Shown here one piece after another: positions 967 to 45,351 of a stretch of DNA of 64,000 nt. The stretch is from Candidatus Campbellbacteria bacterium (lineage in GTDB: Bacteria; Patescibacteriota; Minisyncoccia; Phycocordibacterales; EsbW-18). Every line of letters starts with the position of its first letter. Position 1 is the first letter of the stretch. The DNA lies in the NCBI GenBank assembly GCA_045863475.1, contig BTUR01000003.1:8647-72646 (forward strand), read 5' to 3'. The position numbers were made by a program, and so were the translations under genes. Below the pieces are notes generated by a model. The model was given only the letters and a program-made list of their open reading frames with translations, did not search any database and was not told where the DNA came from.

Positions 967-1115
967 CAAGGTTTTCCCTCACCGGCCGGGATTGAACGGC
1001 GAAGGGGGTCGGGGAAACTGTAAGTTTCCCCGTGGAGGAAGGCAGATTGCCGAAGGCAATCGTCGGAAAACCGTGGGTTTCCGAGGTTGTGAAATCCCGG
1101 CCATCGGCTCAGGTC

Positions 1116-8111: not shown

Positions 8112-8182
8112 TGCCGGATCATCTAATGGTAGGATACATGACTCTGAATCATGTCATCTAGGTTCGAATCCTAGTCCGGCAA
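8112..8182 (+). tRNA. tRNA-Gln (anticodon CTG)
   Basis: Acceptor TGCCGGA/TCCGGCA, anticodon stem CATGA/TCATG with loop CTCTGAA, T-arm CTAGG-TTCGAAT-CCTAG. Its 3' end serves as an integration site and is repeated downstream. Confidence 0.8.
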
Positions 8183-9637
8183 CAAAGTTGAAATTTCTCG
8201 ATTTGGGGCACCTTTTGCAATAATCGAAAAGGGCTTTTTATATTGTAAATTAACAATTTCTTTATCTTTAAAGTAAACGTTCCAAAGTAGAGAATTCAGT
8301 ATCTTGTATTTTTTCTCATCACTACCATCCAAAAATGTTTTCGTGGCTCTACTGCTTTCTAAAAAGATTTTCTTGGTCTGTTCCAAAGTATCTTTACGAG
8401 ACCGTGCTTTATCTTCAAGATCACTAAGCTGGCTATCAATCTCAACCCTACGATTGCCTGAGACACTCATTTTTGACCTATAAAGCTCGTCTGTGATTAT
8501 TCCCGAGGCGAATCCATCAGTCAGCCGGGACTCACGCTCTAGGAGCATTTTAAGCTCCTCTCGAAGGGCGTCGATGGCTAGATCACGTCTTTCAGAGTCT
8601 ATACCTATTTTTTCTCGAGCAGACTGGTACATGATTTCAATTAAATCTTCGTCGAAGTAAAGAGTCTCGAGTTCATGCCCTAATTTTTTAACGATGTCCT
8701 CCTCACGCATGTACAATGACTTCTGAGAACAATTTCCCTTACCGTTCGTACAGTAGTAATAACGATGACCTTTCTTCAAAGATGCAGTGAGCATACATCC
8801 ACATTCATGGCATCTCATTGGACCACGAAGTGGGAAGAAGAGCGTTTGTCTTTTAGGGCGAGACGTTCCATTTAGAACTTCCTGTGCCCGATTAAAGAGA
8901 TCTTTTGTAATTATGGGTTCATGGGCACCTTGATAAAATTCACCATCACGTTCCATCATTCCGTAATAGAAAGGATTTACGATTACTCGATGAACAACTG
9001 AGCGAAACACCTTTCCTCCGGATGGAGTTCGAAGCCCCTCTGAAAAAAGAATGTTGGCAATGTCTCTAAAAGATTTTGTACCTGTTGCATATAACTCAAA
9101 CATCCTGGTAATCCAGTGAACCATCGTTGGGTTAATAACGACAGACTTTGTAGAAGGATTATTTAGGTAGCCATATGGTGCACGATTTGGCCACTCGCCA
9201 CGTTCTAACTTTGCTCTATTTCCACGCTTAACATTTGTGCTTAAATCTCTGACATATTGATTTGCCATTCCAAGCTCTACAGCCATCATGAGAACATTGT
9301 CTGTCGGGTAGTAATCTCTTTCAAAAGTTTTTATGTGTTTGATGGTGTTTTGTTGTAGCAACCAACTCACGCTTCCACCGTCCATAGGGTTTCTTGCAAG
9401 ACGATCAAGTTTCCAACAAAGAATACCGTCCGCTTTTCCATTAGAAAGTAACCCCATCATTTCATTAAAGTAGGGGCGACCGGGTGCTTTTGCAGACATA
9501 CTCTCCTTAAACGTTCGCACAATTTGAATCTGTTCCTTCTCAGCAACACGAAGAAGTTCTGATTCTTGAGAATCAAGCGACATTATTTGGCGGTCTTCTG
9601 ATTCGGATGATTTTCTACAGTAAAGAATATATCGCAT
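8171..9637 (-). CDS. large serine recombinase (resolvase/invertase N-domain, recombinase domain and zinc ribbon)
   Basis: N-terminal catalytic region YCRKSS...DRQ...SLDSQ, central recombinase domain, C-terminal zinc ribbon CHECGCM...YYYCTNGKGNC. Its stop codon lies inside the tRNA-Gln 3' end. Start codon uncertain; the long ORF runs to 9658. Confidence 0.85.
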   Translation of the reverse strand: MRYILYCRKSSESEDRQIMSLDSQESELLRVAEKEQIQIVRTFKESMSAKAPGRPYFNEMMGLLSNGKADGILCWKLDRLARNPMDGGSVSWLLQQNTIKHIKTFERDYYPTDNVLMMAVELGMANQYVRDLSTNVKRGNRAKLERGEWPNRAPYGYLNNPSTKSVVINPTMVHWITRMFELYATGTKSFRDIANILFSEGLRTPSGGKVFRSVVHRVIVNPFYYGMMERDGEFYQGAHEPIITKDLFNRAQEVLNGTSRPKRQTLFFPLRGPMRCHECGCMLTASLKKGHRYYYCTNGKGNCSQKSLYMREEDIVKKLGHELETLYFDEDLIEIMYQSAREKIGIDSERRDLAIDALREELKMLLERESRLTDGFASGIITDELYRSKMSVSGNRRVEIDSQLSDLEDKARSRKDTLEQTKKIFLESSRATKTFLDGSDEKKYKILNSLLWNVYFKDKEIVNLQYKKPFSIIAKGAPNREISTLLPD

Positions 9638-9644
9638 ACTATAG

Positions 9645-10421
9645 TTAGCATACACCATCGTCTGGAATTTTGAAAAGACGGTGTCGACACTTTCCTAACC
9701 ACTGAGTTTCGTACTCCTGATCAAATTCGGCAGAAGTTTCTTGTACCTGATAGTCATCTAATATCGGCCAGATAGGATAAGTACCCGAGAGAAATCTTGG
9801 ACGGGCGATATTTCTGGAGGCAACATACGCCTTCTTATTCTTTAGTCTCGGATCAATAAATGCTTTTGACATATATTTTGCGAGATAAAAAGAAAGTCTA
9901 TTTGAACCATCTGTTTTCTTTAGGAAGACGTGACCTCTTTTCCAGGATCTTCTAAGTGAACGAGTTTTCCGTTCTTGTACGTATACTTCAGTGGGTAACC
10001 CCCAGAACAAAGCGTGGAAATGAACTGCTCCACGTTTTTGAAACTCCGGGACACAGATATACTTGAAATCTTTTCCGTATTTATATCGGAGAGATTGGAC
10101 AAAAGTCTTGTAATCTCTGTATCCGACGGCAATATCGGTTTCGTTCTCTTTATAGGTAAGAGTAACGAGTAAAGGAGATTGAGATCCTGACAGGTTGCAT
10201 GCCACAATCCTTCTAAAAGCCATATGTGCGCGTTTAGCATTATCCTGTCTTTTCCCCAACTGTTTTTTCGAAAGAGTATCTTGTCCATCAGCTCGAATAT
10301 CCTCACTTGCATGAGTACTGCCATGACTTCTACGGGATCGTCTGGGGATCGGCTTCGGCTCTTTTTCGAATTCAAAGAGTTCCAGGTTATTTCCGTAGAT
10401 GATAATTTTTTTGTATGCCAT
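9645..10421 (-). CDS. HUH-superfamily rolling-circle replication initiator (Rep)
   Basis: Motif I LLVTLTY, motif II (HUH) VHFHALFWG, motif III YLAKYMSK. 258 aa. Confidence 0.7.
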   Translation of the reverse strand: MAYKKIIIYGNNLELFEFEKEPKPIPRRSRRSHGSTHASEDIRADGQDTLSKKQLGKRQDNAKRAHMAFRRIVACNLSGSQSPLLVTLTYKENETDIAVGYRDYKTFVQSLRYKYGKDFKYICVPEFQKRGAVHFHALFWGLPTEVYVQERKTRSLRRSWKRGHVFLKKTDGSNRLSFYLAKYMSKAFIDPRLKNKKAYVASRNIARPRFLSGTYPIWPILDDYQVQETSAEFDQEYETQWLGKCRHRLFKIPDDGVC

Positions 10422-10439: not shown

Positions 10440-10649
10440 TTAGTTAACTAGCAAGTCAGAAAGAGCCTGGTTCTCGCGCCCACGCACGCGCGGAGAACCA
10501 GGCTCTTCCTCTGCCAACGCCAAGAAAACAGAGCTCAAAACACCAGCATACTCACGAGCAGTATCGATTGAGATCGTTTTCGAGTATCGTTTGTTGAAAT
10601 AATCCTGAATTTTCAGAACTAGTTCTGTTGAATAAATAAACCTCTCCAT
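10440..10649 (-). CDS. hypothetical small protein of the mobile-element module
   Basis: 69-aa ORF in the minus-strand operon between the 210-aa protein and Rep. Confidence 0.3.
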   Translation of the reverse strand: MERFIYSTELVLKIQDYFNKRYSKTISIDTAREYAGVLSSVFLALAEEEPGSPRVRGRENQALSDLLVN

Positions 10650-11562: not shown

Positions 11563-11760
11563 AGTGTAGGTAGTTGCTAACTATGGTTCTACATACTATA
11601 GTTAGCATATTATGAACACCTATTATCGCCCCCTTCTTTATTTTATCTGCGGGCTCATCCTAAGCTTTGTTATATTGTCCTGGCTCAAATAAGGGCTGAT
11701 TTGTAACGCCAAACGTGCTACAATTGCTTAAAATATGGCTAATATGCTACTCCAAAACCT
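11563..11760. promoter_or_regulatory. divergent promoter/operator region between the XRE-Rep-recombinase operon and the nucleotidyltransferase operon
   Basis: Perfect inverted repeat CCTACAC-ccaca-GTGTAGG at 11564-11584. Inverted copies of the 9-mer TAGTTAGCA (TGCTAACTA at about 11574-11582 and TAGTTAGCA at about 11600-11609). The 17-mer ATACTATAGTTAGCATA recurs at 9637-9654 at the recombinase start. Confidence 0.4.
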
Positions 11761-12651
11761 ATGGCCACCACGCTTAAAGAAAGCTTTAGACAATTTGCAT
11801 CAAATGTAAATATTACAGATCGTCAAACGACGATTGTCTCAAACTGCAGGAATAACATTGTCAGTAAGATTGGTGCAAAATTGTCTTTGCACTCGGAACA
11901 GCCGTCAAAACTAATTGGTTCGTACGACAGAGATACTTCAACAAGATATCTAAGTGAGGGAGATGTTGATGTGATGGTTGTTTTACATTATGGAGACAAC
12001 GAAGACTGGGATAACAAAGACGGTGTTTCAAAATCGTTGAATCGGTTTAAGTCCATCCTACAAGAAGCATACCCGAAAACTACCTGTAAGATCGATAGAA
12101 ACTGTGTCACGATGAAATTATCCGAATTCCGTTTGGATGTCATTCCAACGTTTAGGTGGAATACCGGAGAATATACAATTCCAGATACACATCGTGGACA
12201 GTGGCTAAAAACTAACCCGGTAAGATTTGCCGAAGAGGTTACACGAATTAATAAACGAATGGATGGGACATTTATTCCCTTGATAAAAATGGTTAAGGCT
12301 TGGAACAGAGAATATACAAACAAACTTAGAGGATTTCACATCGAATGCATGATGATGGCACACTACAAGAATTATGATAAATCATACACGTATGATTCGA
12401 CCCTGAATGTGTTTTTTTCCAATCTTCCAAATTACTTAAATACAGCGTCATATGATCCAATTACAGGAGATAGGGTTGATTTATATCTCGACAACAGTTC
12501 TCTGGGCAACGATAGACAAACTTTTGTAAAGAGGGCTCAAAATACAGCAAAAAAATCTAAAGAAGCATACGAGGATGGAGAAAAATATCCGATCGTAGCT
12601 GTTGATGAATGGAAAGACATACTCGGTGAATTTTTCCCAGCTTATGGATAA
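11761..12651 (+). CDS. minimal nucleotidyltransferase of the SMODS/CD-NTase type
   Basis: Signature GS-x11-[DE]-x-D in GSYDRDTSTRYLSEGDVDVMVVL, plus a downstream third acidic strand motif RLDVIP. About 296 aa, typical for SMODS/cGAS-DncV-like enzymes. Confidence 0.6.
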   Translation: MATTLKESFRQFASNVNITDRQTTIVSNCRNNIVSKIGAKLSLHSEQPSKLIGSYDRDTSTRYLSEGDVDVMVVLHYGDNEDWDNKDGVSKSLNRFKSILQEAYPKTTCKIDRNCVTMKLSEFRLDVIPTFRWNTGEYTIPDTHRGQWLKTNPVRFAEEVTRINKRMDGTFIPLIKMVKAWNREYTNKLRGFHIECMMMAHYKNYDKSYTYDSTLNVFFSNLPNYLNTASYDPITGDRVDLYLDNSSLGNDRQTFVKRAQNTAKKSKEAYEDGEKYPIVAVDEWKDILGEFFPAYG

Positions 12652-13471
12652 TCAACAGAAAGCAATCCAACTAAATCAAATTGCTAGAATGCTTTTTAAT
12701 AATGCATCCATTAAGTGGCAATTGTCTATAGGATTAGAACTACTGGCTGGACTCATTGGAGTGGTGGCAACTCTATTGGCAACCACTTTAGGTTGGCAAA
12801 TTTCTAGTGCCATTTGCGTTGTTGTTCTATTGCTCGTTGCCTATTACCTATGGTACTCATTCGAGAAAGATTACGATAACGCAGAAACAATGAGACGACA
12901 GTCAGTGCTAACAGAAGGACTTGGTTGGCCTATGACTGATGCCCAATTTTCTCATTGGAAAAGCAGGGTTGCGTCAAAACTTTTACAAAAGGCACTATGC
13001 AACAAACGTGATGATGATTACTACACCACAACCGAGAACGTAGGACCAGAACGTTTATTGCAGATGACGCAAGAATCAGTTTTTTGGACTAGGAATCTTT
13101 ATGAAAGGCTTTTTAAATATATACTGGTGTGTTTGGTGTTAGTGGTAATCTCTCTCATTATCACTTTAAATATTGCGGTATTACCTCAAGACGAACAAGT
13201 CAGGTTGAACATCCTACACTTTATTTATCTGGTTATACCGCTACTGCTCACGATTGATTTTTTTGGTTTAGTTCTTCGTTTGCATCGTGCGATTCAGTCT
13301 TTACTGGAAGTCGAAAGAGACTTAGATCGATTAACTAAAGCTGAACATTCCGTCGAGCATATAATGAGATTGGTCGCGGAATATAACTGTATACTTGCTT
13401 CAGGAGTACCTATACCTAACTGGCTATTTTCTCGTCATCATGATGAGATACAGGCGTGTTGGAAAGAATAA
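12643..13471 (+). CDS. multi-pass membrane protein, candidate effector partner of the nucleotidyltransferase (SLATT-like?)
   Basis: Start ATG overlaps the upstream stop (ATGGATAA). Two N-terminal TM helices and two later TM helices. The ORF track gives the start as 12602. Confidence 0.5.
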
Positions 13472-14019
13472 ATATGTTAAACCGAATTTTTAAAAAGAAA
13501 AATACCCCATATTTCATAATAGTCATACTATTGGTTTGGGTTGCGTATCAGTACCTAGCAATTGCTAGTCTTAAGTCAACCGAGCTTTATCTGTATTCTT
13601 ATGTACCTCATGTTGAATTGAGTAGCACAAAATATCAGTCTGGAAGCGAGACACTATTTCACATCACAGGATTTGTAAAATTTAACAACACTACAGACCA
13701 ACCACGAAGACTTTGGCAATATCAGATTATTGAACCTTCAAACAAAATTGATGGGAGTGGAAATCGTATATACCTACTGACAGACATTATAAAATTGGAC
13801 TATGTACCACCGAGATATTTTGAACCAGTAGAAATCAAAGAGGTTCAAGATACAGGTTCTCTCGTTACCTTCACTGATGAGGCTGGCAACATATTCAGAA
13901 TCAACAAACTAACCGAAGAAGTATCGGTACAGGACACAACAGGAGATTCAACAACCCTTATAACAAATGAAAATGACTATAAGGACTTTATGAGAGAGTT
14001 TCTTCGGGGAGAGCAATAG
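13456..14019 (+). CDS. membrane-anchored protein, third gene of the nucleotidyltransferase operon
   Basis: Start overlaps the preceding gene by 16 nt. Single N-terminal TM helix (YFIIVILLVWVAYQYLAIA) followed by a beta-rich soluble domain. Confidence 0.45.
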   Translation: MLERINMLNRIFKKKNTPYFIIVILLVWVAYQYLAIASLKSTELYLYSYVPHVELSSTKYQSGSETLFHITGFVKFNNTTDQPRRLWQYQIIEPSNKIDGSGNRIYLLTDIIKLDYVPPRYFEPVEIKEVQDTGSLVTFTDEAGNIFRINKLTEEVSVQDTTGDSTTLITNENDYKDFMREFLRGEQ

Positions 14020-14062
14020 TGGTTCCAATATCGTCCCATAATGCCAACTCGATAACTATAGT

Positions 14063-14770
14063 ATGCAGGTAAAAACTTACTTGAACACCACCAAGGAAGA
14101 GGTGGAAGCAAAAGAACATAACATTTGGATTGGGATAAGTCTCGGAAACAAATATTTCACCAAAGAAAACATCCACGCATACATTTTGTGGGCACTTAAG
14201 CATACGAAAGATGATGTGCTTGTGGCAATTATTGACGATATCTATGCAATAAATCTCGAGGTTTTTGATAAGCGATCAAAGGACTCTTCACTTCGTAGGG
14301 CGCGCAGAAAGGGCGATACAAAGGCCGTCGAGGTTCAGGAAATTGTCGATGGTTTGTCTGGTAGGGATAAGGCGCGGGTTCATATAGTTCGGTGGATTGA
14401 CTTAATCAACTCAAAATACCACTCATACAGAACCAAGATACTGTATGACGAGTTTGAATCAAATAAAGCTTTTCACGACTACATTCTCGAGATTATCAGG
14501 GAAGGAAGAAGTGATAGGTTGCAAGAGCTAGACGAAGCGGGGATAGAAAAGTTGGCGGAGTATGTTCTTAAGGAGATACCAGTTTTCATCAACGGGGCAA
14601 AATACAAGACAAAAGATGGGTGGAAAACATACTCACTTATTCCATATCCAGGTCTTACAAAACTCGACGAATTGTTTATTGGTTTGCAGAATAAGGATCT
14701 TTTCTCCGAACTTGCGGAAAAACTAAAGATAACTGATAAGATTGCTATACTCGAGGCTTATCCTCGTTAA
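14063..14770 (+). CDS. tRNA-dependent cyclodipeptide synthase (CDPS)-like protein
   Basis: GISLGNKYF matches the AlbC catalytic-serine pocket GISAGNSYF, and AEYVLKEIPVF matches the AlbC YVLAEAPLF region containing the conserved Tyr/Glu. Size of 235 aa and a basic RRARRK patch also fit the CDPS family. Confidence 0.6.
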   Translation: MQVKTYLNTTKEEVEAKEHNIWIGISLGNKYFTKENIHAYILWALKHTKDDVLVAIIDDIYAINLEVFDKRSKDSSLRRARRKGDTKAVEVQEIVDGLSGRDKARVHIVRWIDLINSKYHSYRTKILYDEFESNKAFHDYILEIIREGRSDRLQELDEAGIEKLAEYVLKEIPVFINGAKYKTKDGWKTYSLIPYPGLTKLDELFIGLQNKDLFSELAEKLKITDKIAILEAYPR

Positions 14771-14820
14771 ATAAGGCGACGGTTCCAACATCGTCCCATA
14801 ATGCCAACAATGGAAAATTT

Positions 14821-14855: not shown

Positions 14856-14916
14856 CGCCGGACTAGGATTCGATGGCCGCAGGCGCGCCATTGGTCCAAG
14901 CGCCGAGGCGGGGTCG

Positions 14917-14986
14917 AGAGTACTTTGCATTTTGTCGTGTACGCGAGCAAAATGCTTAGTAACTCGTGACAGAATCCTGGTCCTAT
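14917..14986. repeat. attC-like imperfect palindrome plus tRNA-Gln-3'-end-like core, copy 1 (copy 2 at 21532..21598)
   Basis: CGAGAGTACTTTGCATTTTGTCG-loop-CGAGCAAAATGCTTAGTAACTCG followed by GAATCCTGGTCC. It is about 90% identical to 21532-21598. Confidence 0.6.
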
Positions 14987-15048
14987 AGGGTTTACGGATC
15001 GAAGGAGAATCCTAGTCCAATAACATTAAGATTTAATCCAATTCATAA

Positions 15049-15678
15049 ATGATATTTCTCACCTCAAGTGTCGGTTCCGTTGCCACACATCTCTACAAGA
15101 ACTTTCTTGCCGACAAAGGGTTTATATCGGTGCTTTTTATTGATACTGCGGCTGAACCAGAAATCGGCAACGGAGAAGATGATGGGTGGCTTCAAAATGA
15201 CCTTCAGTCTCTTCGGGATCAGGGGTACAGAGTGGATCGGTACACAATAACAGGGAAGGAGCGAGGTGAGATTGAAAGGAAGCTCGATGAGTATGATGTT
15301 ATCTACATGTCTGGTGGCAACACGGCTTATTTACTCGACCAGTTGCAGAAGACAAACTCCTTCACTCTAATCAAGGAAAAGGTTGGTCACGGCAAGCCGT
15401 ATATCGCTACGAGTGCAGGTTCGATTATCGCCGGCCCCAGAATTCCCGAGTATCTTAGGGAGGGGGAGCCTGCTCTCGATGATTACACCGCATTCGGTTT
15501 TGTTAATTTTGTAGTGGCCCCGCATTGGGGTTCGGATATATTTAGAGATGAGTACATAGGAGGAAGAATTGAAACCGCATACAGGCTTGATCAGCCGCCG
15601 TATGTTCTTTTGAACGATATGCAGTATATCTTCGTCAACGACGACGGTTTAGTTAGAATCGTAGAGACAAAACCATAA
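15049..15678 (+). CDS. peptidase family S51 (dipeptidase E / cyanophycinase-like)
   Basis: MSGGNTAYL (GGNT motif) and the nucleophile-Ser motif ATSAGS, plus a downstream His (PHWGSD). 209 aa. Confidence 0.7.
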   Translation: MIFLTSSVGSVATHLYKNFLADKGFISVLFIDTAAEPEIGNGEDDGWLQNDLQSLRDQGYRVDRYTITGKERGEIERKLDEYDVIYMSGGNTAYLLDQLQKTNSFTLIKEKVGHGKPYIATSAGSIIAGPRIPEYLREGEPALDDYTAFGFVNFVVAPHWGSDIFRDEYIGGRIETAYRLDQPPYVLLNDMQYIFVNDDGLVRIVETKP

Positions 15679-15716
15679 CTCGAATCCTAGTCCGGGGTAT
15701 TTTAATTTTTTCAACC

Positions 15717-16883
15717 ATGAAAGTTCTACTCACCGGTGTTGCTGGAACGGGAAAATCGACGCTCACAAAAGCCTTGGTGGGAAGAGGAATTGCAGCGATA
15801 GACCTCCACGACATCCCCGGTCTGTGTTATTGGCAGGACAAAAAGACAAAACAAAAAGTTGAATATGTTCCAACCAACTCGCGAGAATGGTTTGATACGG
15901 TGGACCGCTTATGCGACATCGAGCAATTGAAAGAGGTTCTTAATCAACAAGACAGCATTATTGTCGCAGGTACAGCAGGCGAGAGTCAGAGCGAATATCT
16001 TCCGCTTTTTGATAAAGTTATACTTTTGCAATGTAGTCCAGAAACTGTTGTACGCCGTATGCAAACACGGACCAATAAATCTGGATACGGAAAAACAAAA
16101 GCAGAACAGGATGACACCGTTGAGTGGCAGAAAGGATTTGACTCAGAACTTCTCTCACGTGGTGCGATTCCTCTTAATACGGAAGGTGATGTTGATGAAA
16201 CCGTAGACAGAATTATTGAGATAACAAAAATACCCTCGCGGTCCTGGTCCAGAAACAAAAACATGAGTGCAACAAAGGAAGAAATTGAGGTTATTTTTCT
16301 TGAAATCGACAAAGACGAGGTGGAGAAGAAACTCGCCGCTCTTGGCGCCACAAAAACACGTGATTTCTTTTACCGGCATGCCTCATTCGATTATCCAGAT
16401 TATCGGCTCAATAAAGACAACAGCTGGATACGCTTGCGTGATGAGGACGGAGAAGTGCGATTGGCATTCAAGAAGCGTCTTGGCGTTACATCGCAGGACG
16501 GCAGCACGAACGACGAGGGTATGGAAGAAATTGAAACCACCGTGGGAAATTATGAAAATACCAAAATCCTTCTAGGAAAGGTTGGGTTCATCGAGAAACA
16601 CGAAGCAGAAAAGAAACGGACACGGTGGCAGTTGGGGGAGACAGAATTCGATATCGACACATGGCCGGGCATCCCGACGTTCCTTGAAATCGAGGCACCG
16701 TCATGGGAAGCGATTGATGAGGCAACGCAATCCCTCGGGTTGGACCCGAAGAGCAGAAAAATCTGCTCGGTGAACCAGGTGTACCGCATGTACGGTATGG
16801 ATGTTGATGATTATCAGAAACTCAGCTTCAACGGATTGGTCAAGAAACAACCGAATCTTAGTCCGGCAACAAATAAAAAATAA
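15717..16883 (+). CDS. fusion of a P-loop (uridine-kinase-like) kinase domain and a CYTH domain (CyaB/thiamine-triphosphatase fold)
   Basis: N-terminus LLTGVAGTGKSTL Walker A. C-terminal half carries IRLR and the terminal EFDIDTWPGIPTFLEIE motif typical of CYTH domains. The N-domain is paralogous to ORF 18978..19478. Confidence 0.6.
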   Translation: MKVLLTGVAGTGKSTLTKALVGRGIAAIDLHDIPGLCYWQDKKTKQKVEYVPTNSREWFDTVDRLCDIEQLKEVLNQQDSIIVAGTAGESQSEYLPLFDKVILLQCSPETVVRRMQTRTNKSGYGKTKAEQDDTVEWQKGFDSELLSRGAIPLNTEGDVDETVDRIIEITKIPSRSWSRNKNMSATKEEIEVIFLEIDKDEVEKKLAALGATKTRDFFYRHASFDYPDYRLNKDNSWIRLRDEDGEVRLAFKKRLGVTSQDGSTNDEGMEEIETTVGNYENTKILLGKVGFIEKHEAEKKRTRWQLGETEFDIDTWPGIPTFLEIEAPSWEAIDEATQSLGLDPKSRKICSVNQVYRMYGMDVDDYQKLSFNGLVKKQPNLSPATNKK

Positions 16884-16888
16884 TTTGT

Positions 16889-17020
16889 ATGCATAAGGCA
16901 GAACCATCTGAAGAGCTGTTGCAATGTTATGACGAGGAAGGAAATCATTCCGAACCGCCAATTGCAGAGCTATCTGGAAATTGTAATTTTCATACTCCAT
17001 ATATTGACTTTCCAATATAA
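16889..17020 (+). pseudogene. truncated duplicate of the 5' end of the Nudix gene
   Basis: MHKAEPSEELLQCYDEEGN... is highly similar to the Nudix N-terminus at 20030 (MHKAEPPQELLQCYDDQGS), then diverges and stops after 43 codons. Confidence 0.5.
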
Positions 17021-17158: not shown

Positions 17159-17896
17159 ATGGCTGAGAAGTTCAGTGTGGGCACAACCTCGGTTTGGAAG
17201 TCCGACCGGACTCCCGTCACCGAGGCCGACACCCAGATCAACGAGCTCGTCCTCAACGCACTTCGCCGCCACTACCCCCACATCCACGTGATCTCGGAGG
17301 AAGGCAATGGCGAGGTGGACGGCGCCGAGTATCGCATCCTCTGCGATCCTCTCGACGGCACGTTTGCGTTCATGTACGGGCTTCCGATTTCGTCGTTCTG
17401 CATCTCGGTGCTCCGCGAGAACACGGTCCTGTCGTCGGTCATCTATGACCCGTTCTGCAAGAGAATGTGGTCGGCGGATCGAGGCAAGGGCGCGTTCCTC
17501 AACGGAGCTCCGACGCGGGTCAACGTGATCGACGGCATCACGAAGCCCAATCCGGTGAACGTGTGCATCGTGTGGTGGCAGGGATGCTACTACAATATGC
17601 ACGCAGTCGCTGGTGAGGTCATGGCCGCCAACATGCACGTCATGCAACCCATGACGATCGCACTATGTGGAGGCCTCATCGCTTCGGGCACGCTCGAGGC
17701 GACTGTGTTTCCCGGTCAGAGAGGTTGGGAAACGGCTGCGATGGGTCTGATTGTGGAAGAGTCCGGTGGCAAGGTCACCGACATCCACGGCAATCCCGTC
17801 CAGTACGGACCGACCGCCGAGATCGAAGGGCACATCATCAGCAACGGCACCCTCGTTCACAACTCGCTTGTCGATATCGTGCGGAGGTGTCAGTAA
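17159..17896 (+). CDS. inositol monophosphatase family phosphatase (SuhB/CysQ-like, possible 3'(2'),5'-bisphosphate nucleotidase)
   Basis: DPLDGT metal-binding motif and WETAAMGLIVEESGG (WDxAAG-like). GC is clearly higher than in neighbouring genes. Confidence 0.75.
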   Translation: MAEKFSVGTTSVWKSDRTPVTEADTQINELVLNALRRHYPHIHVISEEGNGEVDGAEYRILCDPLDGTFAFMYGLPISSFCISVLRENTVLSSVIYDPFCKRMWSADRGKGAFLNGAPTRVNVIDGITKPNPVNVCIVWWQGCYYNMHAVAGEVMAANMHVMQPMTIALCGGLIASGTLEATVFPGQRGWETAAMGLIVEESGGKVTDIHGNPVQYGPTAEIEGHIISNGTLVHNSLVDIVRRCQ

Positions 17897-17967
17897 CAGG
17901 AATCAGGCAGAAGACAGGGACCCAATGGCCACGAGCCAGTGGGTCCCTTTTGCTATATACTTTTTAC

Positions 17968-18933
17968 ATGGATATACTCTCAGCTTTTAAAGAGGGAAAG
18001 GTAGATGGAGAAAACTCAACACCTGAACATATTGTTACGGGTATTTCAAACATTTTTGTATTTGAAACAAAGGCATACAAACTCTATAAGAGTGACAGTC
18101 AATTTTTTAACGAGAATTTCAACGACCTGTCTAAGAAAGAAAATAGATTCTCTTTCACGAGGAAAGATTTTGAATGGAATAACCGTCTGAGTCCTGAGAT
18201 TTACACTCAACTAAAAGGGGTGGTGGTTAGTGATGGTCGAGTTAAGTTTGTCGATCCAACAGATTCTGTTGAAGAGCTTGTGATTGTTATGAATAAGATT
18301 GACATGTCAGATCAGGTCATCCGAAAGCTTGTAGACAATCAGCTGTCACTTAACGATTGTTATGAAATCGGAAAGCAGTTCGGCGAACGCTCTTTAAAAC
18401 TTCCTCCGGCAAGTGTGAATATAACTGCGTACAAAGATTTCCTCACTCGTCATCACGATGAAGCTGCTTGGATAAAGAGTGTGAAGGAGGTGCCGGAAGA
18501 TGAAGCCGACAAGTATCTTACGTTCGTTAAAGATTGTATCGAGAAATACCGCGAGATCCTTGAAAGTTCTAACCAAATAGGGCTCTGTTTAGATGTGCAT
18601 GCTGATAACGCAATTTATACGAATGGCACCTTTTTGCCCATAGATACGTATGCACCAAAGGAAGCCTGGCTGTATGGATTCAAAAATATAAATATCTACA
18701 GAATTGCGACGGATTTCTATGTCTTCCTGGGTGAGGAAGCTTTTAATGAGGTTATTCGTGGTTATGAGGATGCAACTGGTCAAAAGCTTCCAAGGGACTG
18801 GGATACTTTCATGGTTGTTTATTGTGAGATCATCATGTGGCCGTATCAATACATGCTTGCCGAAAAACAACCTTGGAGAAAAGATATCGCAGAAAAGCAT
18901 CATACATTTTTGAGGTCGTTGGTGCTTAAGTAA
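17968..18933 (+). CDS. hypothetical protein with possible kinase-like (APH/protein-kinase fold) catalytic region
   Basis: 321 aa. LDVHADNAIYTNG resembles an HxDxxxxN catalytic loop and IDTY a metal-binding Asp. The start is set at ATG 17968 because the long ORF overlaps the previous gene. Weak assignment. Confidence 0.4.
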   Translation: MDILSAFKEGKVDGENSTPEHIVTGISNIFVFETKAYKLYKSDSQFFNENFNDLSKKENRFSFTRKDFEWNNRLSPEIYTQLKGVVVSDGRVKFVDPTDSVEELVIVMNKIDMSDQVIRKLVDNQLSLNDCYEIGKQFGERSLKLPPASVNITAYKDFLTRHHDEAAWIKSVKEVPEDEADKYLTFVKDCIEKYREILESSNQIGLCLDVHADNAIYTNGTFLPIDTYAPKEAWLYGFKNINIYRIATDFYVFLGEEAFNEVIRGYEDATGQKLPRDWDTFMVVYCEIIMWPYQYMLAEKQPWRKDIAEKHHTFLRSLVLK

Positions 18934-18977
18934 AATTCCCAGCATCGTCCCATAAGGTCAACAAAAAAATTCTTACC

Positions 18978-20022: not shown

Positions 20023-20029
20023 TAATCCT

Positions 20030-20578
20030 ATGCATAAGGCAGAACCACCACAAGAACTCTTGCAATGCTATGACGATCAAGGAAGCCCGATTGATTCGAA
20101 AACACGAGCAGAGATAAAAGCTAACCCAGGAACATATTGGTGTGGTGTTGTGAACGTGTGGGTGGTAAATAGTGAGGGACAACTTCTTTGCTCAAAGCGT
20201 TCGAAAGGTCTTTCTGGTAATCCGGGGAAGTGGCAGACATATTTTGGAGGACATATTCCTGCCGGGCTTGGTTTTCGAGAAGCGGCGGTGAAGGAGTTGG
20301 GGGAAGAGACTGGTATTCATTTTGAAGAGAATAGTCTCTTTTTTATCCATCGAGGAAAAGACGATGTGAACAAGAAGTTTTTTGAGAGCTACGCAGTTCG
20401 CTTCAATGGTCAACCGAGCGATCTGGTTTTTACTGACGGAGAGATAACAGAGGCGAGGTGGATGCCTATTGAGGAATATGTTGCTGACGAGGCACAGAAC
20501 CCAGAACGGTGGTGTAATGGGTGCAAACCTGAACGCCGAAAAGCCATTCAAGAGTGGGTTAGTACCTTTCAAAAATAA
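20030..20578 (+). CDS. Nudix hydrolase
   Basis: Nudix box GGHIPAGLGFREAAVKELGEETGI. Confidence 0.8.
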   Translation: MHKAEPPQELLQCYDDQGSPIDSKTRAEIKANPGTYWCGVVNVWVVNSEGQLLCSKRSKGLSGNPGKWQTYFGGHIPAGLGFREAAVKELGEETGIHFEENSLFFIHRGKDDVNKKFFESYAVRFNGQPSDLVFTDGEITEARWMPIEEYVADEAQNPERWCNGCKPERRKAIQEWVSTFQK

Positions 20579-21438: not shown

Positions 21439-21531
21439 AAGTTCCCGGAGCTTCACAGAAAAGGAGTCGCACCCAAGACTTATTCTGTGAGGCTCCTTTT
21501 CGTTTTTACGGGCATATTTGGGGCGGGGATC

Positions 21532-21598
21532 GAGAGTACTTTGCATTTTGTCGCGCAGGCGAGCAAAATGCTTAGTAACTCGTGACCGAATCCTAGTC
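21532..21598. repeat. attC-like imperfect palindrome plus tRNA-Gln-3'-end-like core, copy 2
   Basis: Second copy of the 14917-14986 element, ending in GAATCCTAGTCCG. Confidence 0.6.
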
Positions 21599-21716
21599 CG
21601 AGGGTTTCCGAGTTCCGTATGTCCGGCACCCCGAATCGAAGAAGAAAGGCGTACTCGCGGTCCTGGTCCGGCAACGTTGTTAAATAACTAGACGTTAATA
21701 AACTAAAGAGCGAATT

Positions 21717-24779: not shown

Positions 24780-25709
24780 ATGCTTACCCAACTCTTTATC
24801 TTCGCCGCAGCGCTGTTTCTCGTCGTGAAAGGCGCGACAATGTCCACAAAGCACGCCGAGCGCCTCGCAAAATCTTTCAATCTCTCGGCCTACACGGTGG
24901 GCTTCATTGTGATCGCCATCATCTCCATTCTCCCGGAGACGTTCATCTCCATTAACGCCGTGTTGGAGGGAATTCCTTCGTTTGGTCTCGGCACGCTCCT
25001 CGGCTCTAACGTCGCCGACCTCACGCTCGTGTTCTTCCTCATTGTCTTGCTCTCAGGCAGAAATCTTAAGGTGGAGGGGAAAATTCTTACCGACGACGCG
25101 ATGTATCCGTTTTTGCTTATTATGCCGCTTGTGCTCGGCCTCGACGGATATTTTTCACGGGTTGAAGGTGTCGCGTTGGTGGCGACCGGTGTCTTTTTCT
25201 ACTACCTTGCGCTGAAAAACGGTCATCGTAACGAGGTGTCGGTGCGCAACAAAAAGGAGCAGGTACAAAGTGTCGTTATGCTTCTCATCGGCATGGCGCT
25301 CCTGCTTGTCGGTGCGCACTACTCGGTGACGTCGGCGACGTACTTCGCGGAGCTTTGGGGGGTGAGCCCCGTGCTCATCGGTATGCTTATCGTGGGTCTT
25401 GGCACTGTCATGCCGGAGTTTCTGTTCTCACTGCGCTCGGTGAAAGATCATGACGACGATCTTGCCATTGGGGATTTGCTCGGCACAGTACTCGCGGATG
25501 CGACCATTGTGATAGGTATCATTGCGCTTATGCAGCCGTTTGCGTTTTCCAAGACGATTATCTACGTTGCAGGCGTTTTCATGGTCGCGGCGTGTTTTAT
25601 TCTCTTCTCGTTTATGCGCTCAGGCAGGGCACTGACGAAGAAAGAAGGGTATGCGCTCTTCGTGTTTTGGCTGACGTTTGTGCTTATTGAGTTCATCATC
25701 AATCATTAG
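24780..25709 (+). CDS. Na+/Ca2+ (CaCA family, YrbG-like) exchanger
   Basis: Two alpha-repeats: ISILPETFISI ... GLGTLLGSNVADLTLV and GTVMPEFLFSL ... GDLLGTVLADATIV. About 10 TM helices. Confidence 0.8.
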   Translation: MLTQLFIFAAALFLVVKGATMSTKHAERLAKSFNLSAYTVGFIVIAIISILPETFISINAVLEGIPSFGLGTLLGSNVADLTLVFFLIVLLSGRNLKVEGKILTDDAMYPFLLIMPLVLGLDGYFSRVEGVALVATGVFFYYLALKNGHRNEVSVRNKKEQVQSVVMLLIGMALLLVGAHYSVTSATYFAELWGVSPVLIGMLIVGLGTVMPEFLFSLRSVKDHDDDLAIGDLLGTVLADATIVIGIIALMQPFAFSKTIIYVAGVFMVAACFILFSFMRSGRALTKKEGYALFVFWLTFVLIEFIINH

Positions 25710-25725
25710 TTTTAATCCACACACT

Positions 25726-26448
25726 ATGTCCGCACGACTCTATTCATTTCTTGGAATGTTCACGCTTGTCGCCGTTCTCTCGTTTTCACCGCTGACATCA
25801 CTGCGTGCGCAGGCCGCGGACGCAGTTCTCACCGAAGCACAAAAAGTTGCCCAGCTTGAGCAGTTGATTGAGTCTCTCATTGCGCTTTTGGAGCAGTTGT
25901 ATCCGCAGATAGATTGGAGCGCGTTTGGGACGTCGGATGACGAGGATGAGGATGAGGATGAGGATGATGAGGATGAGGACGAGGACGACCCTGAGCTTTC
26001 AGTGGGCGACCCGGAAGCCGAAGGTTCAGACGGAAACGAGGCGCGAGTGAGCTATACGATTCCGTTTTCTGTCCGCGCATTTGGCGAGGATATGTACGTT
26101 CCGGTGGGTACGACGCGTGCGGATACGGCCTCAACGGCAGTGGGCGTGACGTACGTCATCGAAGACGATACCGGAACGACGTACGCGGGAGGGACTGCGC
26201 TGTCTTCATTTGACGGTGACGGCGAAACAGGGGACACCAATGACTACTACAAACTCAGAAAGGATAAGAGCCGTTTGTTTACGCTCAAGGTTTCGTTTAA
26301 TAATGAGGGAGGAACCATCGGATACTATCGGGCACGCATTGTGGGTATTACCTTTGACGAAGACACGTCGGCGGGCGGGGAATACGCACTGACAGCCGGT
26401 TTGCGAGATTACCGAACGCCTTCGATATACGTCGGCGATACGGAATAA
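25726..26448 (+). CDS. secreted acidic protein (signal peptide, poly-D/E tract, DGDG-type putative Ca-binding motif)
   Basis: Signal peptide MSARLYSFLGMFTLVAVLSF, the run DDEDEDEDEDDEDEDEDD, and FDGDGETGDTNDYY. Confidence 0.5.
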   Translation: MSARLYSFLGMFTLVAVLSFSPLTSLRAQAADAVLTEAQKVAQLEQLIESLIALLEQLYPQIDWSAFGTSDDEDEDEDEDDEDEDEDDPELSVGDPEAEGSDGNEARVSYTIPFSVRAFGEDMYVPVGTTRADTASTAVGVTYVIEDDTGTTYAGGTALSSFDGDGETGDTNDYYKLRKDKSRLFTLKVSFNNEGGTIGYYRARIVGITFDEDTSAGGEYALTAGLRDYRTPSIYVGDTE

Positions 26449-26501: not shown

Positions 26502-27374
26502 TTAGCGGAGTGCTGCGATTTGTGCCTGGAGCTGTGCAATGAGTTGGAGAATGAGTTTGACGAGCTCAGAGCGAACCTTCAAAACAGCGTCGCTGTTTCC
26601 GGGTCCGGTGTTGTCGTCATCATCCTCATCATCGTCATCGTCAGAATCATCGTCGTCTTCGTCCTCGTCATCATCTTCATCGTCGTCATCATCTGAGTCG
26701 TCGACGTCGAGTTCATCGAGTGCTTCCTCGGCGAGCTCTTCAGCTTCGTCAGCGAGGTCTTCGGCTTCCGCCCAGTCGCCGTCATCAAATGCGTCTTGCG
26801 CGTCTGCAAGAACGTCATTGGCTTCGTCGATGAGGTCTTCTGCATCACCCGTCTCTTCATCGTCGTCCTGCGCGTCTTCAAGCGCCTCTTCCGCGTCGTC
26901 TATCTTGTCCTGCGCGTCGTCAATCGCGTCCTGCGCGGAATCCTCGTCGCTCTCGTCGTTGTCTTCGTCATCGTCGTCGTTGGAGTCTTCGTCCTCAACG
27001 AACGTGACGTCAACGCTGTCGGAGTCGACTTCATCGTCGCCGTCAAAGACGGTGAGTGTGATTTCGGCATCAAACTCGTCGTCCGGATCGTGCGCGATGA
27101 GTGTAATCATCCCCTCATCGTCGTTGTTGTAATTGGCAAACACCTCGTCGTTATCGGTGCAGTCGAAGTCTTCGTCTCCGTCAACTTCGATCTCTGCATC
27201 TTCGGAACACGAGATGGAGAGTTCAACGTCGTACTCTCCGTCGAGTTCCCATGAGACCTCAACTTCACGATCGTTGTTTGACTCCGAGTCGGCATCAAAA
27301 TTCGTGATGCCTGCGGCGCTGACAAACGCAAACGGTGCGAGTGCGAGCGCAAGGAGTAATCCTAGTTTTTTCAT
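26502..27374 (-). CDS. secreted highly acidic low-complexity protein
   Basis: Signal peptide MKKLGLLLALALAPFAFVSAAG, then more than 40% Asp/Glu with VDGDEDFD and FDGDDEVD motifs. The antisense Ser-rich ORF 26539..27132 is a mirror artefact. Confidence 0.55.
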   Translation of the reverse strand: MKKLGLLLALALAPFAFVSAAGITNFDADSESNNDREVEVSWELDGEYDVELSISCSEDAEIEVDGDEDFDCTDNDEVFANYNNDDEGMITLIAHDPDDEFDAEITLTVFDGDDEVDSDSVDVTFVEDEDSNDDDDEDNDESDEDSAQDAIDDAQDKIDDAEEALEDAQDDDEETGDAEDLIDEANDVLADAQDAFDDGDWAEAEDLADEAEELAEEALDELDVDDSDDDDDEDDDEDEDDDDSDDDDDEDDDDNTGPGNSDAVLKVRSELVKLILQLIAQLQAQIAALR

Positions 27375-45141: not shown

Positions 45142-45351
45142 ACAGTGATGTAAAAACTTCGTGCGGAGGCGGAGAGACCACGAGTACGTTTTTCTCCCGC
45201 GACTAAAAACTCGTCGTCACTCGCTTTTGTCGTGTCCGCGGCTCGCGACCCCGCCTGTTGGCGGGGTGCCCGCTCCGCCTTTCGAATCCCCCCGCGCTAC
45301 TCGCAATAATACTCCATTCGGATGGTTCCCATCCATCCTCATGGATTATTG

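Follow-up and report, generated by a model that had tools for sequence, protein, structure and literature searches.

A tRNA-Gln gene anchors a low-GC island in a Campbellbacteria genome

The window analyzed here, a 64,000-nt stretch of contig BTUR01000003.1 (assembly GCA_045863475.1) of a Candidatus Campbellbacteria bacterium, a member of the candidate phyla radiation (CPR; Patescibacteria), carries a tRNA-Gln(CTG) gene on the plus strand at positions 8112-8183 (ARAGORN; Rfam tRNA score of 62.5 bits), beside which a low-GC island extends from position 8184 to approximately 23300, with a GC content of approximately 40% as compared to 53% in the host. Genes beside tRNA-Gln encode a large serine recombinase (LSR) on the minus strand (8171-9658; Pfam Resolvase, Recombinase, and Zn_ribbon_recom domains; PHROG integrase, 2.7e-83), the stop codon of which overlaps the tRNA-Gln 3' end, a rolling-circle Rep protein of the ORF2/G2P type next to the LSR (9645-10421), an HTH protein, a SMODS (CBASS-like) set, and a cyclodipeptide synthase (CDPS); other island genes encode peptidase S51, an AAA-CYTH protein, inositol monophosphatase, small kinases, a NUDIX protein, RidA, and a ClpP-like protein. 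The locus thus has the parts of a tRNA-anchored island, i.e., an intact tRNA gene, an integrase, cargo, and direct partial tRNA copies. Searches of the island ORFs against Pfam, NCBIfam, and PHROGs found no second recombinase or integrase remnant, and across the 64-kb window (island ORFs by protein families, the rest by eye) the LSR was the only recombinase found, with no tyrosine recombinase, integron integrase, or Xer protein. An orphan ORF of 422 aa (17665-18933) was considered as a hidden recombinase and rejected; no protein family or PDB entry matched it, and its sequence contains a kinase-like HxDxxxxN motif. Exact-protein look-ups with the S51 and ClpP-like proteins gave matches confined to the same genome and the same arrangement; the contigs from the source samples all share one arrangement, and no excised form, within-species empty site, or population polymorphism was seen.

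The 3' part of tRNA-Gln, CGAATCCTAGTCCGGCAACAAA (8165-8186), is the sequence copied at all island junctions. Direct copies of this sequence (hereafter, tails) begin at positions 14972, 15007, 15682, 16852, 21588, and 21661, and the window contains 8 occurrences of the tRNA-Gln 12-mer core with no more than one mismatch, as compared to 0.24 expected. The blocks of identity always start in the T-loop, at (C)GAATCC, while their end points vary; many direct tails stop after 12-14 nt, and the tails at 16852 and 21661 reach the end of the tRNA gene, the former as a nearly full copy of the tRNA-Gln 3' part that includes the gene end (16852-16873, plus strand; CGAATCTTAGTCCGGCAACAAA; 21/22 identical). 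Full-length hairpins precede the tails at 14972 and 21588, short derivatives of the hairpin-containing module described below precede the tails at 15007, 15682, and 21661, and neither precedes the tail at 16852. All three of these short derivatives (mini-modules) keep the left end of the module (GAATCGAAG-like), and two of them also keep the right end (TAACTC or GTACTCGCGG). Cores at 15007 and 15682 lie on either side of the peptidase S51 gene (15049-15678); the left boundary is formed by mini-module GGATCGAAGGA with direct tail GAATCCTAGTCC (14996-15018, plus strand) and the right boundary by mini-module GAATCGTAG...TAACTC with direct tail CGAATCCTAGTCCGG (15656-15695, plus strand). Since tail junctions with module derivatives lie on both sides, we regard S51 as a single-gene cassette; the recurrence at cassette boundaries that had been proposed from the sequence alone is borne out for the core at junctions such as these. 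The remaining mini-module, GAATCGAAG...GTACTCGCGG, is followed by tail TCCTGGTCCGGCAAC, which runs to the tRNA gene end (21633-21675, plus strand).

The long hairpin is the core of a small non-coding module

A repeat search of the window aligned the two full-length hairpins over 74 nt (14910-14983 and 21526-21599) with 92% identity, close to the value of about 90% given in the sequence-only reading from which this analysis started. A 24-mer at the hairpin start, TCGAGAGTACTTTGCATTTTGTCG, occurs exactly twice in the window, with 0 occurrences expected from shuffled sequences. The long imperfect hairpin that had been drawn for each copy was recovered by folding and exceeded shuffled controls: DNA folds of copies 1 and 2 had energies of -16.4 and -18.2 kcal/mol, respectively (z = -5.0 and -4.8; 0/200 shuffles as stable), and RNA folds had energies of -30.3 and -30.9 kcal/mol, respectively (z = -4.7 and -4.1; no shuffle as stable), as compared to -22.0 and -27.4 kcal/mol for RNA folds of the minus strand. 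Most positions that differ between the copies are in the loop; one difference converts a T.G pair to a C-G pair. The copies end in GAATCCTGGTCC and GAATCCTAGTCCG, respectively, which match the T-loop, the T-stem, and the start of the acceptor of tRNA-Gln(CTG) at 8112-8183, confirming the tRNA-Gln-3'-end-like core that had been noticed at both hairpin ends. Homology between the copies extends beyond this core into a second tail copy (15007-15018 and 21661-21675), and copy 2 is 5'-truncated relative to copy 1, with the left third missing; a single block of module, tail, short empty segment, mini-module, and tail has been duplicated to give the two window copies. The hairpin does not have the makeup of an intrinsic terminator, i.e., a GC-rich stem followed by a T run, with the plus strand continuing as TGACAGAATCC and the minus strand as ACCCCGCC, and a terminator scan at copy 1 listed only a chance sub-stem at 14908-14928.

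A small non-coding module of approximately 100-165 nt, tied to tRNA genes, has the hairpin as its conserved structural core. Read along the tRNA strand, the module begins with an inverted copy of the T-loop and T-stem (sometimes also the acceptor) of the local tRNA, continues with one or two variable hairpins, linker GCCGAGGCGGGG, and the long hairpin ending in CTCGTGAC, and closes with a flush direct copy of the 3' part of the local tRNA. In copy 1, which lies on the plus strand throughout, the inverted arm GCCGGACTAGGATTCGA (14857-14873) is the exact reverse complement of 17 nt of the tRNA-Gln 3' part; the interior (14874-14913) is composed of a short GC hairpin, GGCCGCAGGCGCGCC, and linker GCCGAGGCGGGG, and is conserved in the copies at tRNA-Met and tRNA-Ser(GGA) and on contigs L091 and L092 (see below); the long imperfect hairpin, which is the feature reported in the sequence-only reading, occupies 14914-14971 and ends in CTCGTGACA; and the direct tail GAATCCTGGTCC (14972-14983) is identical to the tRNA-Gln core at 11/12 positions. 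Copy 2 (21524-21587, plus strand) has no inverted arm and consists of GGCGGGGA and the long hairpin (21530-21587), followed by direct tail GAATCCTAGTCCG (21588-21600, plus strand).

In the minimum-energy DNA fold of copy 1, positions 14860-14871 pair with 14972-14983 and thereby close a three-way junction, and the fold of the whole module (14857-14986) is more stable on the plus strand (-33.5 kcal/mol; z = -5.8) than on the minus strand (-27.8 kcal/mol). The inverted arm and the direct tail of copy 1 are separated by 98 nt, and in the modules at tRNA-Thr, tRNA-Glu, and tRNA-His the tail starts approximately 105-135 nt after the start of the arm. Conservation of the closing stem is uneven; arm length ranges from 7 to 23 nt, and the arm is absent in copy 2 and weak (7/10) in the tRNA-Met copy. 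A convergent tRNA pseudogene was considered as the source of the inverted arm and rejected, since the arm corresponds to the local tRNA in every case and no gene is called by ARAGORN. A role as a cis-regulatory leader of peptidase genes, such as follow both window copies, was also rejected, as other copies precede a tRNA gene, a terminator, or a contig end.

Related modules occur at other tRNA genes

A profile search identified a third copy of the hairpin in the same genome, between tRNA-Met and tRNA-Asp approximately 600 bp upstream of the window start. The interior of this copy is organized as in the window, i.e., GGCCGCAGGCGCGC, then AGCGCCGAGGCGGGGTCG, the hairpin, and CGTGAC, and the copy ends in a 20/20 copy of the 3' part of tRNA-Met, not tRNA-Gln, with no adjacent recombinase gene. 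In a related genome, tRNA-Met and tRNA-Asp follow each other in the same order and are separated by a spacer of only 39 nt in place of the module. In other metagenomes, a scan with a looser pattern based on the conserved linker retrieved two contigs (L091 and L092), as compared to 0 in viral collections; the exact hairpin-top pattern (TTTGCATTTTGTCG..GAGCAAAATGC) had no match in viral, genome, or metagenome collections. On L092, tRNA-Ser(CGA) is followed by a terminator-like hairpin, a 13/13 inverted copy of its own T-loop and T-stem, and the module; on L091, the hairpin is followed by two junctions composed of GTGACC and a tail. The sequence-only reading was to be given up if there were no further copies and no folding beyond shuffled sequences; further copies do exist, and the folds are more stable than those of shuffled controls.

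Across five hairpins, 95% of alignment cells are paired, and three pairs have changed on both sides. The covariation score was reached by 0/500 shuffles, with registers slid along the alignment pairing only 29-51%, although for a family of only 5-7 sequences (family 1) such covariation statistics are thin. An unbiased scan of 124 tRNAs, covering all DNA fetched, for copies of their own 3' part identified six tRNAs with both an inverted copy (at +16 to +60) and a direct copy (at +125 to +191), all in one orientation; a seventh, the tRNA-Ser of L092, has the inverted copy only, since the contig ends. One of the six is tRNA-Thr(GGT), which is followed by a module of the same architecture (984-1110, plus strand) that comprises inverted arm GGCCGGGATTGAAC (984-997), three hairpins, and direct tail AATCCCGGCCATCGGCTC (1093-1110), with tRNA-Thr(CGT) coming next. 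A family-1-like module also follows tRNA-Ser(GGA) (45163-45293, minus strand), in the order GGGGGGATTCGAA, GGCGGGGTCG, GTACTCGTGG, and direct tail TCTCTCCGCCTCCGC; GGCGGGGTCG and GTACTCGTGG are family-1 motifs, the direct copy was found in the scan, and the inverted arm (11/13) was found by eye. Modules hence follow 4/8 tRNA genes in a genome stretch of approximately 65 kb.

Other sequence families share this layout, with arms that match their own tRNA: L049 has two module copies at tRNA-Ser that differ by compensatory changes, the tRNA-Gln module of L077 has an inverted arm of 23 nt, and further modules are hosted by tRNA-Pro (L021), tRNA-Ser and tRNA-Glu (L074), tRNA-Trp (L013), and tRNA-Tyr (L016). 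Module interiors are common to different tRNAs of one genome and the arms are local; the Ser and Glu modules of L074, for example, have an identical block of 40 nt in common, and this locus also carries tandem identical units of 205 bp. A reverse-orientation alignment with modules of the L049 type proved misleading and was dropped. Searches of the module regions against Rfam 15 yielded no family at gathering or E-value thresholds (E up to 10); the best scores within modules were 7-19 bits, as compared to cut-offs of 36-95 bits, and only genuine tRNAs passed.

A separate candidate site for the large serine recombinase

Relatives of the LSR were compared at 80 loci, mostly from CPR MAGs. Of the 75 loci that leave room for one, 60 have a tRNA gene (for Gln, Ser, Trp, Lys, and others) directly against the 3' end of the LSR. 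In 41 of the 80 loci, a motif, GTTCCAACnTCGTCCCA followed by a tRNA-specific acceptor-like tail, was found on the strand of the tRNA, 2-11 kb past the LSR. Matches to GTTCCAACnTCGTCCCA numbered 60 on the tRNA strand and 5 on the other strand, with approximately 2 per strand expected by chance, and the sites are often arrayed (at least two copies in 12 loci and at least three in 4 loci). The window has three such sites, all on the plus strand: site 1, GGTTCCAATATCGTCCCATAATGCCAAC (14021-14048), at the left boundary of the CDPS cassette; site 2, GGTTCCAACATCGTCCCATAATGCCAACA (14781-14809), at the right end of the LSR element; and a degenerate site 3, ATTCCCAGCATCGTCCCATAAGGTCAAC (18935-18962), with 75% identity to site 1. 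The near-identical sites 1 and 2 bracket the CDPS gene. From GGTTC to its end, the motif spans 28 nt, as compared to 23 nt in the tRNA. Element-side and target-side half-sites of LSRs are known to differ in length in that way, and the GTTCCAACnTCGTCCCA motif therefore probably represents the element-side half-site of the LSR, with crossover likely to take place at the very end of the tRNA gene. A simple dyad symmetry of the LSR site, i.e., a reverse complement of GTTCCAAC downstream of the tRNA, showed no enrichment over controls. In L054 and L070, a real convergent tRNA follows the LSR site.

DNA to the right of position 14809 would on this anatomy represent the former downstream flank of tRNA-Gln, and copy 1 (14914-14971) would lie outside the LSR element. 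The sequence-only reading had paired the hairpins with the serine recombinase of the island, and it is this part of the reading that fails: the LSR family has a conserved site of its own, GTTCCAACnTCGTCCCA, a search of the 80 LSR loci with a profile of five copies (nhmmer) found no hairpin homologue, and modules are located at tRNA-Met, tRNA-Ser, and tRNA-Thr with no recombinase gene adjacent. A site used by this LSR should be conserved among recombinase relatives at element ends, a role that GTTCCAACnTCGTCCCA fills and the hairpin does not; it should also be a duplex of approximately 40-60 bp with a central crossover, whereas identity at the module junctions begins at the hairpin foot. In L074, L016, and L049, the LSR gene abuts the direct tail of a module, not the tRNA itself, and a second copy of the module unit follows the far-end LSR site; judged by this arrangement, full tail copies appear to serve as LSR target sites. 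In the window, the tails at 16852 and 21661 are seemingly trailed by remnants of the LSR-side arm (by eye; the arm profile is weak, with even the true site at E = 1.9).

Comparison with known systems

The comparison with integron attC sites made in the sequence-only reading is upheld as far as layout is concerned, i.e., an imperfect palindrome, an adjoining core, and a position at cassette boundaries, and breaks down over the attC sequence definitions and the integron integrase. Integron attC sites are 57-141 bp long. The modules are similar to these sites in size, in being bulged imperfect palindromes with an inverse core and a core that pair at the ends, in having a core at every cassette boundary and a variable centre between conserved ends, and in the occurrence of empty cassettes. 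The stretch 14857-14986 forms a one-strand palindrome with pairing ends, as expected of attC, which copy 2, with no 5' arm, does not. Unlike attC, the core is tRNA-derived (GAATCCTAGTCC) instead of GTTRRRY; the module ends GCCGGACTAGGATTCGA and GAATCCTGGTCC are both tRNA-derived and do not conform to RYYYAAC/GTTRRRY. In addition, the array is anchored on a tRNA gene instead of an attI next to intI, the full hairpin occurs at only some cassette boundaries, and no linked intI, attI, and promoter, or any tyrosine recombinase, was found in the window.

A second parallel is provided by the attP(+) site of phage CTX, a forked hairpin formed by two inverted target-like sites that anneal in one strand and recombine at dif through XerCD; integration of this type is expected to give the order target, element, inverted copy, spacer, and direct copy. 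As in CTX and other Xer-exploiting elements, the modules have two inverted target-like copies approximately 90-130 nt apart (about 90 nt in attP(+)) that can anneal in a single strand, their order agrees with the expected post-integration order, and a rolling-circle Rep of filamentous-phage type is encoded nearby. The target here is, however, the T-loop and 3' end of a tRNA and not dif, and most units are gene-less, with no Xer gene found in the window. The module layout is thus similar to that of attC and CTX attP, yet fails the sequence and enzyme definitions of both.

Duplex attP/attB sites of the phiC31/Bxb1/A118 class of LSRs are matched by the LSR element in the window, which targets a tRNA 3' end and has a 28-nt half-site similar to the tRNA 3' half plus 5 nt; the hairpin, in contrast, is far longer than such a half-site and lacks a central crossover. 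Small palindromic mobile repeats are known as MITEs, Rickettsia palindromic elements, and Correia/ERIC-type repeats. The modules resemble these repeats in being non-coding, 100-160 bp long, and strongly structured, with several copies per genome, a shared interior, and deletion derivatives, but they occur only beside tRNA genes and in one orientation; where MITEs have constant terminal inverted repeats, a short target-site duplication, and random orientation, module ends differ between loci and match the local tRNA. Finally, tycheposons of Prochlorococcus are tRNA-anchored islands that arise from successive integrations and contain partial tRNAs (bioRxiv 10.1101/2020.12.28.424599). Shared with these are a full tRNA with scattered partial copies in a low-GC island, newer elements that push older ones inward, the use of large serine recombinases by some elements, and a cargo of defence and metabolic genes; tycheposon att remnants are simple partial tRNAs, however, with no hairpin module with an inverted tRNA copy described, and the host here belongs to the CPR. 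Neither modules of this kind nor these LSR elements turned up for CPR bacteria in literature searches, by which the modules are undescribed in this group.

Interpretation of the modules

The anatomy of the module, its conservation and covariation, its presence at several tRNAs, and its separateness from the LSR are established here; mobility, crossover in the T-loop, recombination through a folded strand, and a trans-acting recombinase are inferences. We tentatively favor, as a reading with a real if somewhat less than even prospect of being correct, that the module serves small, non-autonomous, MITE/attC-like insertion units as their element-side attachment end; these units would target tRNA T-loops and be mobilized by a recombinase supplied in trans. 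Such units, mostly without cargo, would insert into the T-loop region of a tRNA gene or of an existing tail copy, and each insertion would regenerate the tRNA 3' part and displace the older tail downstream, such that repeated insertion could build the tail-bounded cassette array at tRNA-Gln. Inverted and direct tail copies would pair in one strand, the module closing as a three-way junction that, by analogy with the hairpins of attC and CTX attP, may present the 12-nt core GAATCCTAGTCC as a duplex beside the hairpin foot; the recombinase acting on it would be encoded elsewhere. When the LSR element inserted, copy 1 would already have been present downstream of tRNA-Gln. The observed order of tRNA, spacer, inverted copy, approximately 100 nt, and direct copy is the order predicted by CTX-type integration or integron-type cassette insertion. 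Support for insertion units further comes from the tRNA-Met copy, the metagenome homologues, the covariation, the closing stem, the tRNA scan, the local arms, the deletion derivatives with both ends at boundaries, the lack of an Rfam match, and the count of 0/80 LSR loci. Several observations weigh against such units: no suitable recombinase was found in the 64-kb window and no excised, empty, or polymorphic forms were seen; arms are missing in copy 2, weak in the tRNA-Met copy, and variable in length; tails of 12-14 nt are awkward if each once served as the end of an essential tRNA; and the same-strand orientation, the G.T pairs, and the position in tRNA operons suit an RNA function equally well. 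A bolder formulation, which we rate as rather doubtful, is that CPR bacteria harbor a new class of tiny gene-less mobile modules that home to tRNA T-loops via a folded single-strand site composed of one inverted and one direct copy of the tRNA 3' part, with the tRNA acting as attI in a scheme similar to that of integrons or CTX. Cassette arrays would then arise with no linked integrase, and every insertion would supply a new tail as a landing pad for LSR elements.

The same anatomy could also have been left by conventional double-stranded integrative elements with a tyrosine or other integrase and a T-loop crossover, the modules being scars from which the rest was deleted. Under this explanation, which we consider unlikely, the module would be a conserved P-arm by attR and the hairpin would represent inverted protein sites or an internal terminator. 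It is indeed well known that tRNA genes can host islands built by successive integrations and dotted with partial tRNAs, as in tycheposons; many tail copies lie in the low-GC island between 8184 and approximately 23300, palindromic protein sites would also co-vary in both halves, and the identity blocks run from the T-loop to the tRNA end, as in known att cores of the T-loop type, in which identity starts in the T-loop and runs toward the tRNA end. Random decay would not, however, leave one 100-165-nt unit with unchanged boundaries at Met, Gln, Ser, Thr, Glu, and His tRNAs and is not expected to yield the tandem identical 205-bp units of L074; ordinary attP arms do not have an inverted core copy approximately 100 nt upstream, the island holds no integrase remnant, and a purely duplex protein site does not require the better fold of the plus strand. 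This strand preference, with stable folds favoring the plus strand, would be expected if the module were a structured non-coding RNA, transcribed from the tRNA strand either within tRNA operon transcripts or under a promoter of its own. The ends of such an RNA could mimic the acceptor and T-arm of the neighboring tRNA, e.g., to borrow processing enzymes or to regulate maturation, and the tail copies would be functional RNA parts and not recombination cores. The modules always lie on the tRNA strand and downstream of the tRNA, changes from T.G to C-G and from G-C to G.T are present, and the inverted arm together with the tail recreates the T-stem and some of the acceptor stem; with tRNA genes on both sides and no terminator, the Thr and Met copies must be transcribed. 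Against an RNA stand the absence of any Rfam match, even at E up to 10, the terminator-like GC-rich hairpins between tRNA and module at tRNA-Gln and on L092, the wide variation in arm length and completeness (with copy 2 having no 5' arm), and the truncated mini-versions located exactly at cassette boundaries in a foreign low-GC island, which are more like DNA junctions. While we judge an RNA to be improbable overall, it remains a serious rival, since the Thr and Met copies are in tRNA operons and the G.T pairs favor the tRNA strand.

Two further proposals assign the hairpin to enzymes encoded in the island. That the hairpin and core form an attC-like site used by the adjacent LSR is highly improbable. 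The LSR gene shares the island with the hairpin, the LSR integrates at the 3' ends of tRNA genes, and the LSR genes that abut module tails in L074, L016, and L049 indicate that full tails can be LSR targets, but the element-side site of the LSR family itself (GTTCCAACnTCGTCCCA...) is unrelated to the hairpin, hairpin homologues were found in 0/80 LSR loci, and modules occur at tRNAs with no LSR nearby. Serine recombinases cut both strands of duplex sites, and such cutting at a folded hairpin would produce a chromosome end capped by a hairpin. It is also very unlikely that the hairpin is a double- or single-strand origin of the rolling-circle Rep, with nicking at the core releasing or inserting cassettes. 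An ORF2/G2P-type Rep is encoded at 9645-10421, HUH enzymes place their nicks at hairpins or next to them, and the hairpin foot is directly followed by the core; copy 1, however, is located outside the LSR/Rep element, past the right-end site at 14781, relatives with the same Rep have no hairpin homologue, and the element has a strong 18-bp inverted repeat of its own directly upstream of rep (10458-10510).

Should the modules prove to be mobile attachment units, as we favor, they would account for the formation of hypervariable gene arrays beside tRNAs in the ultra-small genomes of CPR bacteria, which have few classical mobile elements; they would represent a second example of strand-folded recombination sites outside integrons and Xer-exploiting phages and would provide more targets for a widespread CPR family of elements that encode a serine recombinase and a rolling-circle Rep and bring defence genes with them. 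As RNAs, they would instead constitute an undescribed class of tRNA-linked RNAs that follows about half of the tRNA genes in this stretch. Either way, the proposed link between the LSR and the hairpin needs correction, since the probable sites of the LSR itself have now been identified.

Cassette arrays at tRNA genes

The conserved site of the large serine recombinase (LSR) family consists of GTTCCAACnTCGTCCCA followed by an acceptor-like tail, and we infer that this combination is the element-side site of the family. LSR-type sites form arrays around short gene cassettes, both in the window, where they lie at 14021-14048, 14781-14809 and 18935-18962 and the first two flank the cyclodipeptide synthase (CDPS) gene on both sides, and in fetched loci such as L006 (five copies), L014 (four copies), L058 and L008. 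These arrays are integron-like cassette arrays at tRNA genes of the candidate phyla radiation (CPR), with a serine recombinase as the driver.

In 60 of 75 loci (L003-L082; window 8171-8183), the stop codon of the LSR gene overlaps or abuts the tRNA 3' end, with tRNA-Gln and tRNA-Ser accounting for 23 loci each and other tRNAs for the rest. The C-terminal coding sequence of the LSR thus probably also serves as one arm of its own attachment site. At two loci (L054 and L070), the LSR site and a terminator are followed downstream by a genuine convergent tRNA gene; some CPR genomes thus have tRNA pairs with a common terminator.

Hairpin modules as probable LSR insertion points

Identical units of non-coding modules laid out like the hairpin module occur in tandem at three loci (L074, L016 and L049), with LSR genes inserted exactly where the direct tail of a module, a copy of the local tRNA 3' part, ends. 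The units of L074 are found at 9767-9974 and 15869-16071 (reverse-complement coordinates); the location in L049 is L049:33-908, and a second, partial LSR gene is present at the edge of this locus. Modules with the same architecture also follow tRNA-Thr(GGT) (window 984-1110) and, on the minus strand, tRNA-Ser(GGA) (window 45163-45293), both distant from the tRNA-Gln island. The hairpin module occurs a third time in the same genome, between tRNA-Met and tRNA-Asp (L001:15264-15405, minus strand), approximately 570-710 bp before the window begins; this copy terminates in a 20-nt tail copy of tRNA-Met.

Repeats and cargo of the LSR element and the tRNA-Gln island

An exact 18-nt repeat, CATACTATAGTTAGCATA, is present at the rep/LSR junction (window 9635-9652) and upstream of the HTH gene (11592-11609), with an inverted copy just upstream of the CDPS start (14053-14068); within the LSR element, this repeat may act as an operator or promoter. 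A strong inverted repeat of 18 bp around a 17-nt GC-rich loop (window 10458-10510), immediately upstream of the rolling-circle rep gene, is a candidate for the element's replication origin. The cargo (window 11761-14019) comprises a gene for SMODS, a CBASS-type nucleotidyltransferase, followed by two further genes, one for a membrane protein and one for an unknown protein, whereas in relatives of the element this set is replaced by restriction-modification, Fic, GmrSD or AAA_15/DUF4145 genes; the element family thus shuttles defence cargo.

Within the tRNA-Gln island, the segment that immediately follows the full tail copy (at 16852) is a duplicate of the NUDIX gene's 5' end (56 nt, 86% identity; window 16888-16943 and 20029-20084), which suggests an older, truncated cassette. 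In addition, CTCGCGGTCCTGGTCCAGAAAC (window 16235-16256), within the AAA-CYTH gene, shows 91% identity to 21654-21675, the end and tail of a mini-module (a short deletion derivative of the module). Beyond the island, two neighbouring predicted secreted proteins (window 25678-26448, plus strand, and 26502-27374, minus strand) contain very long Asp/Glu runs.
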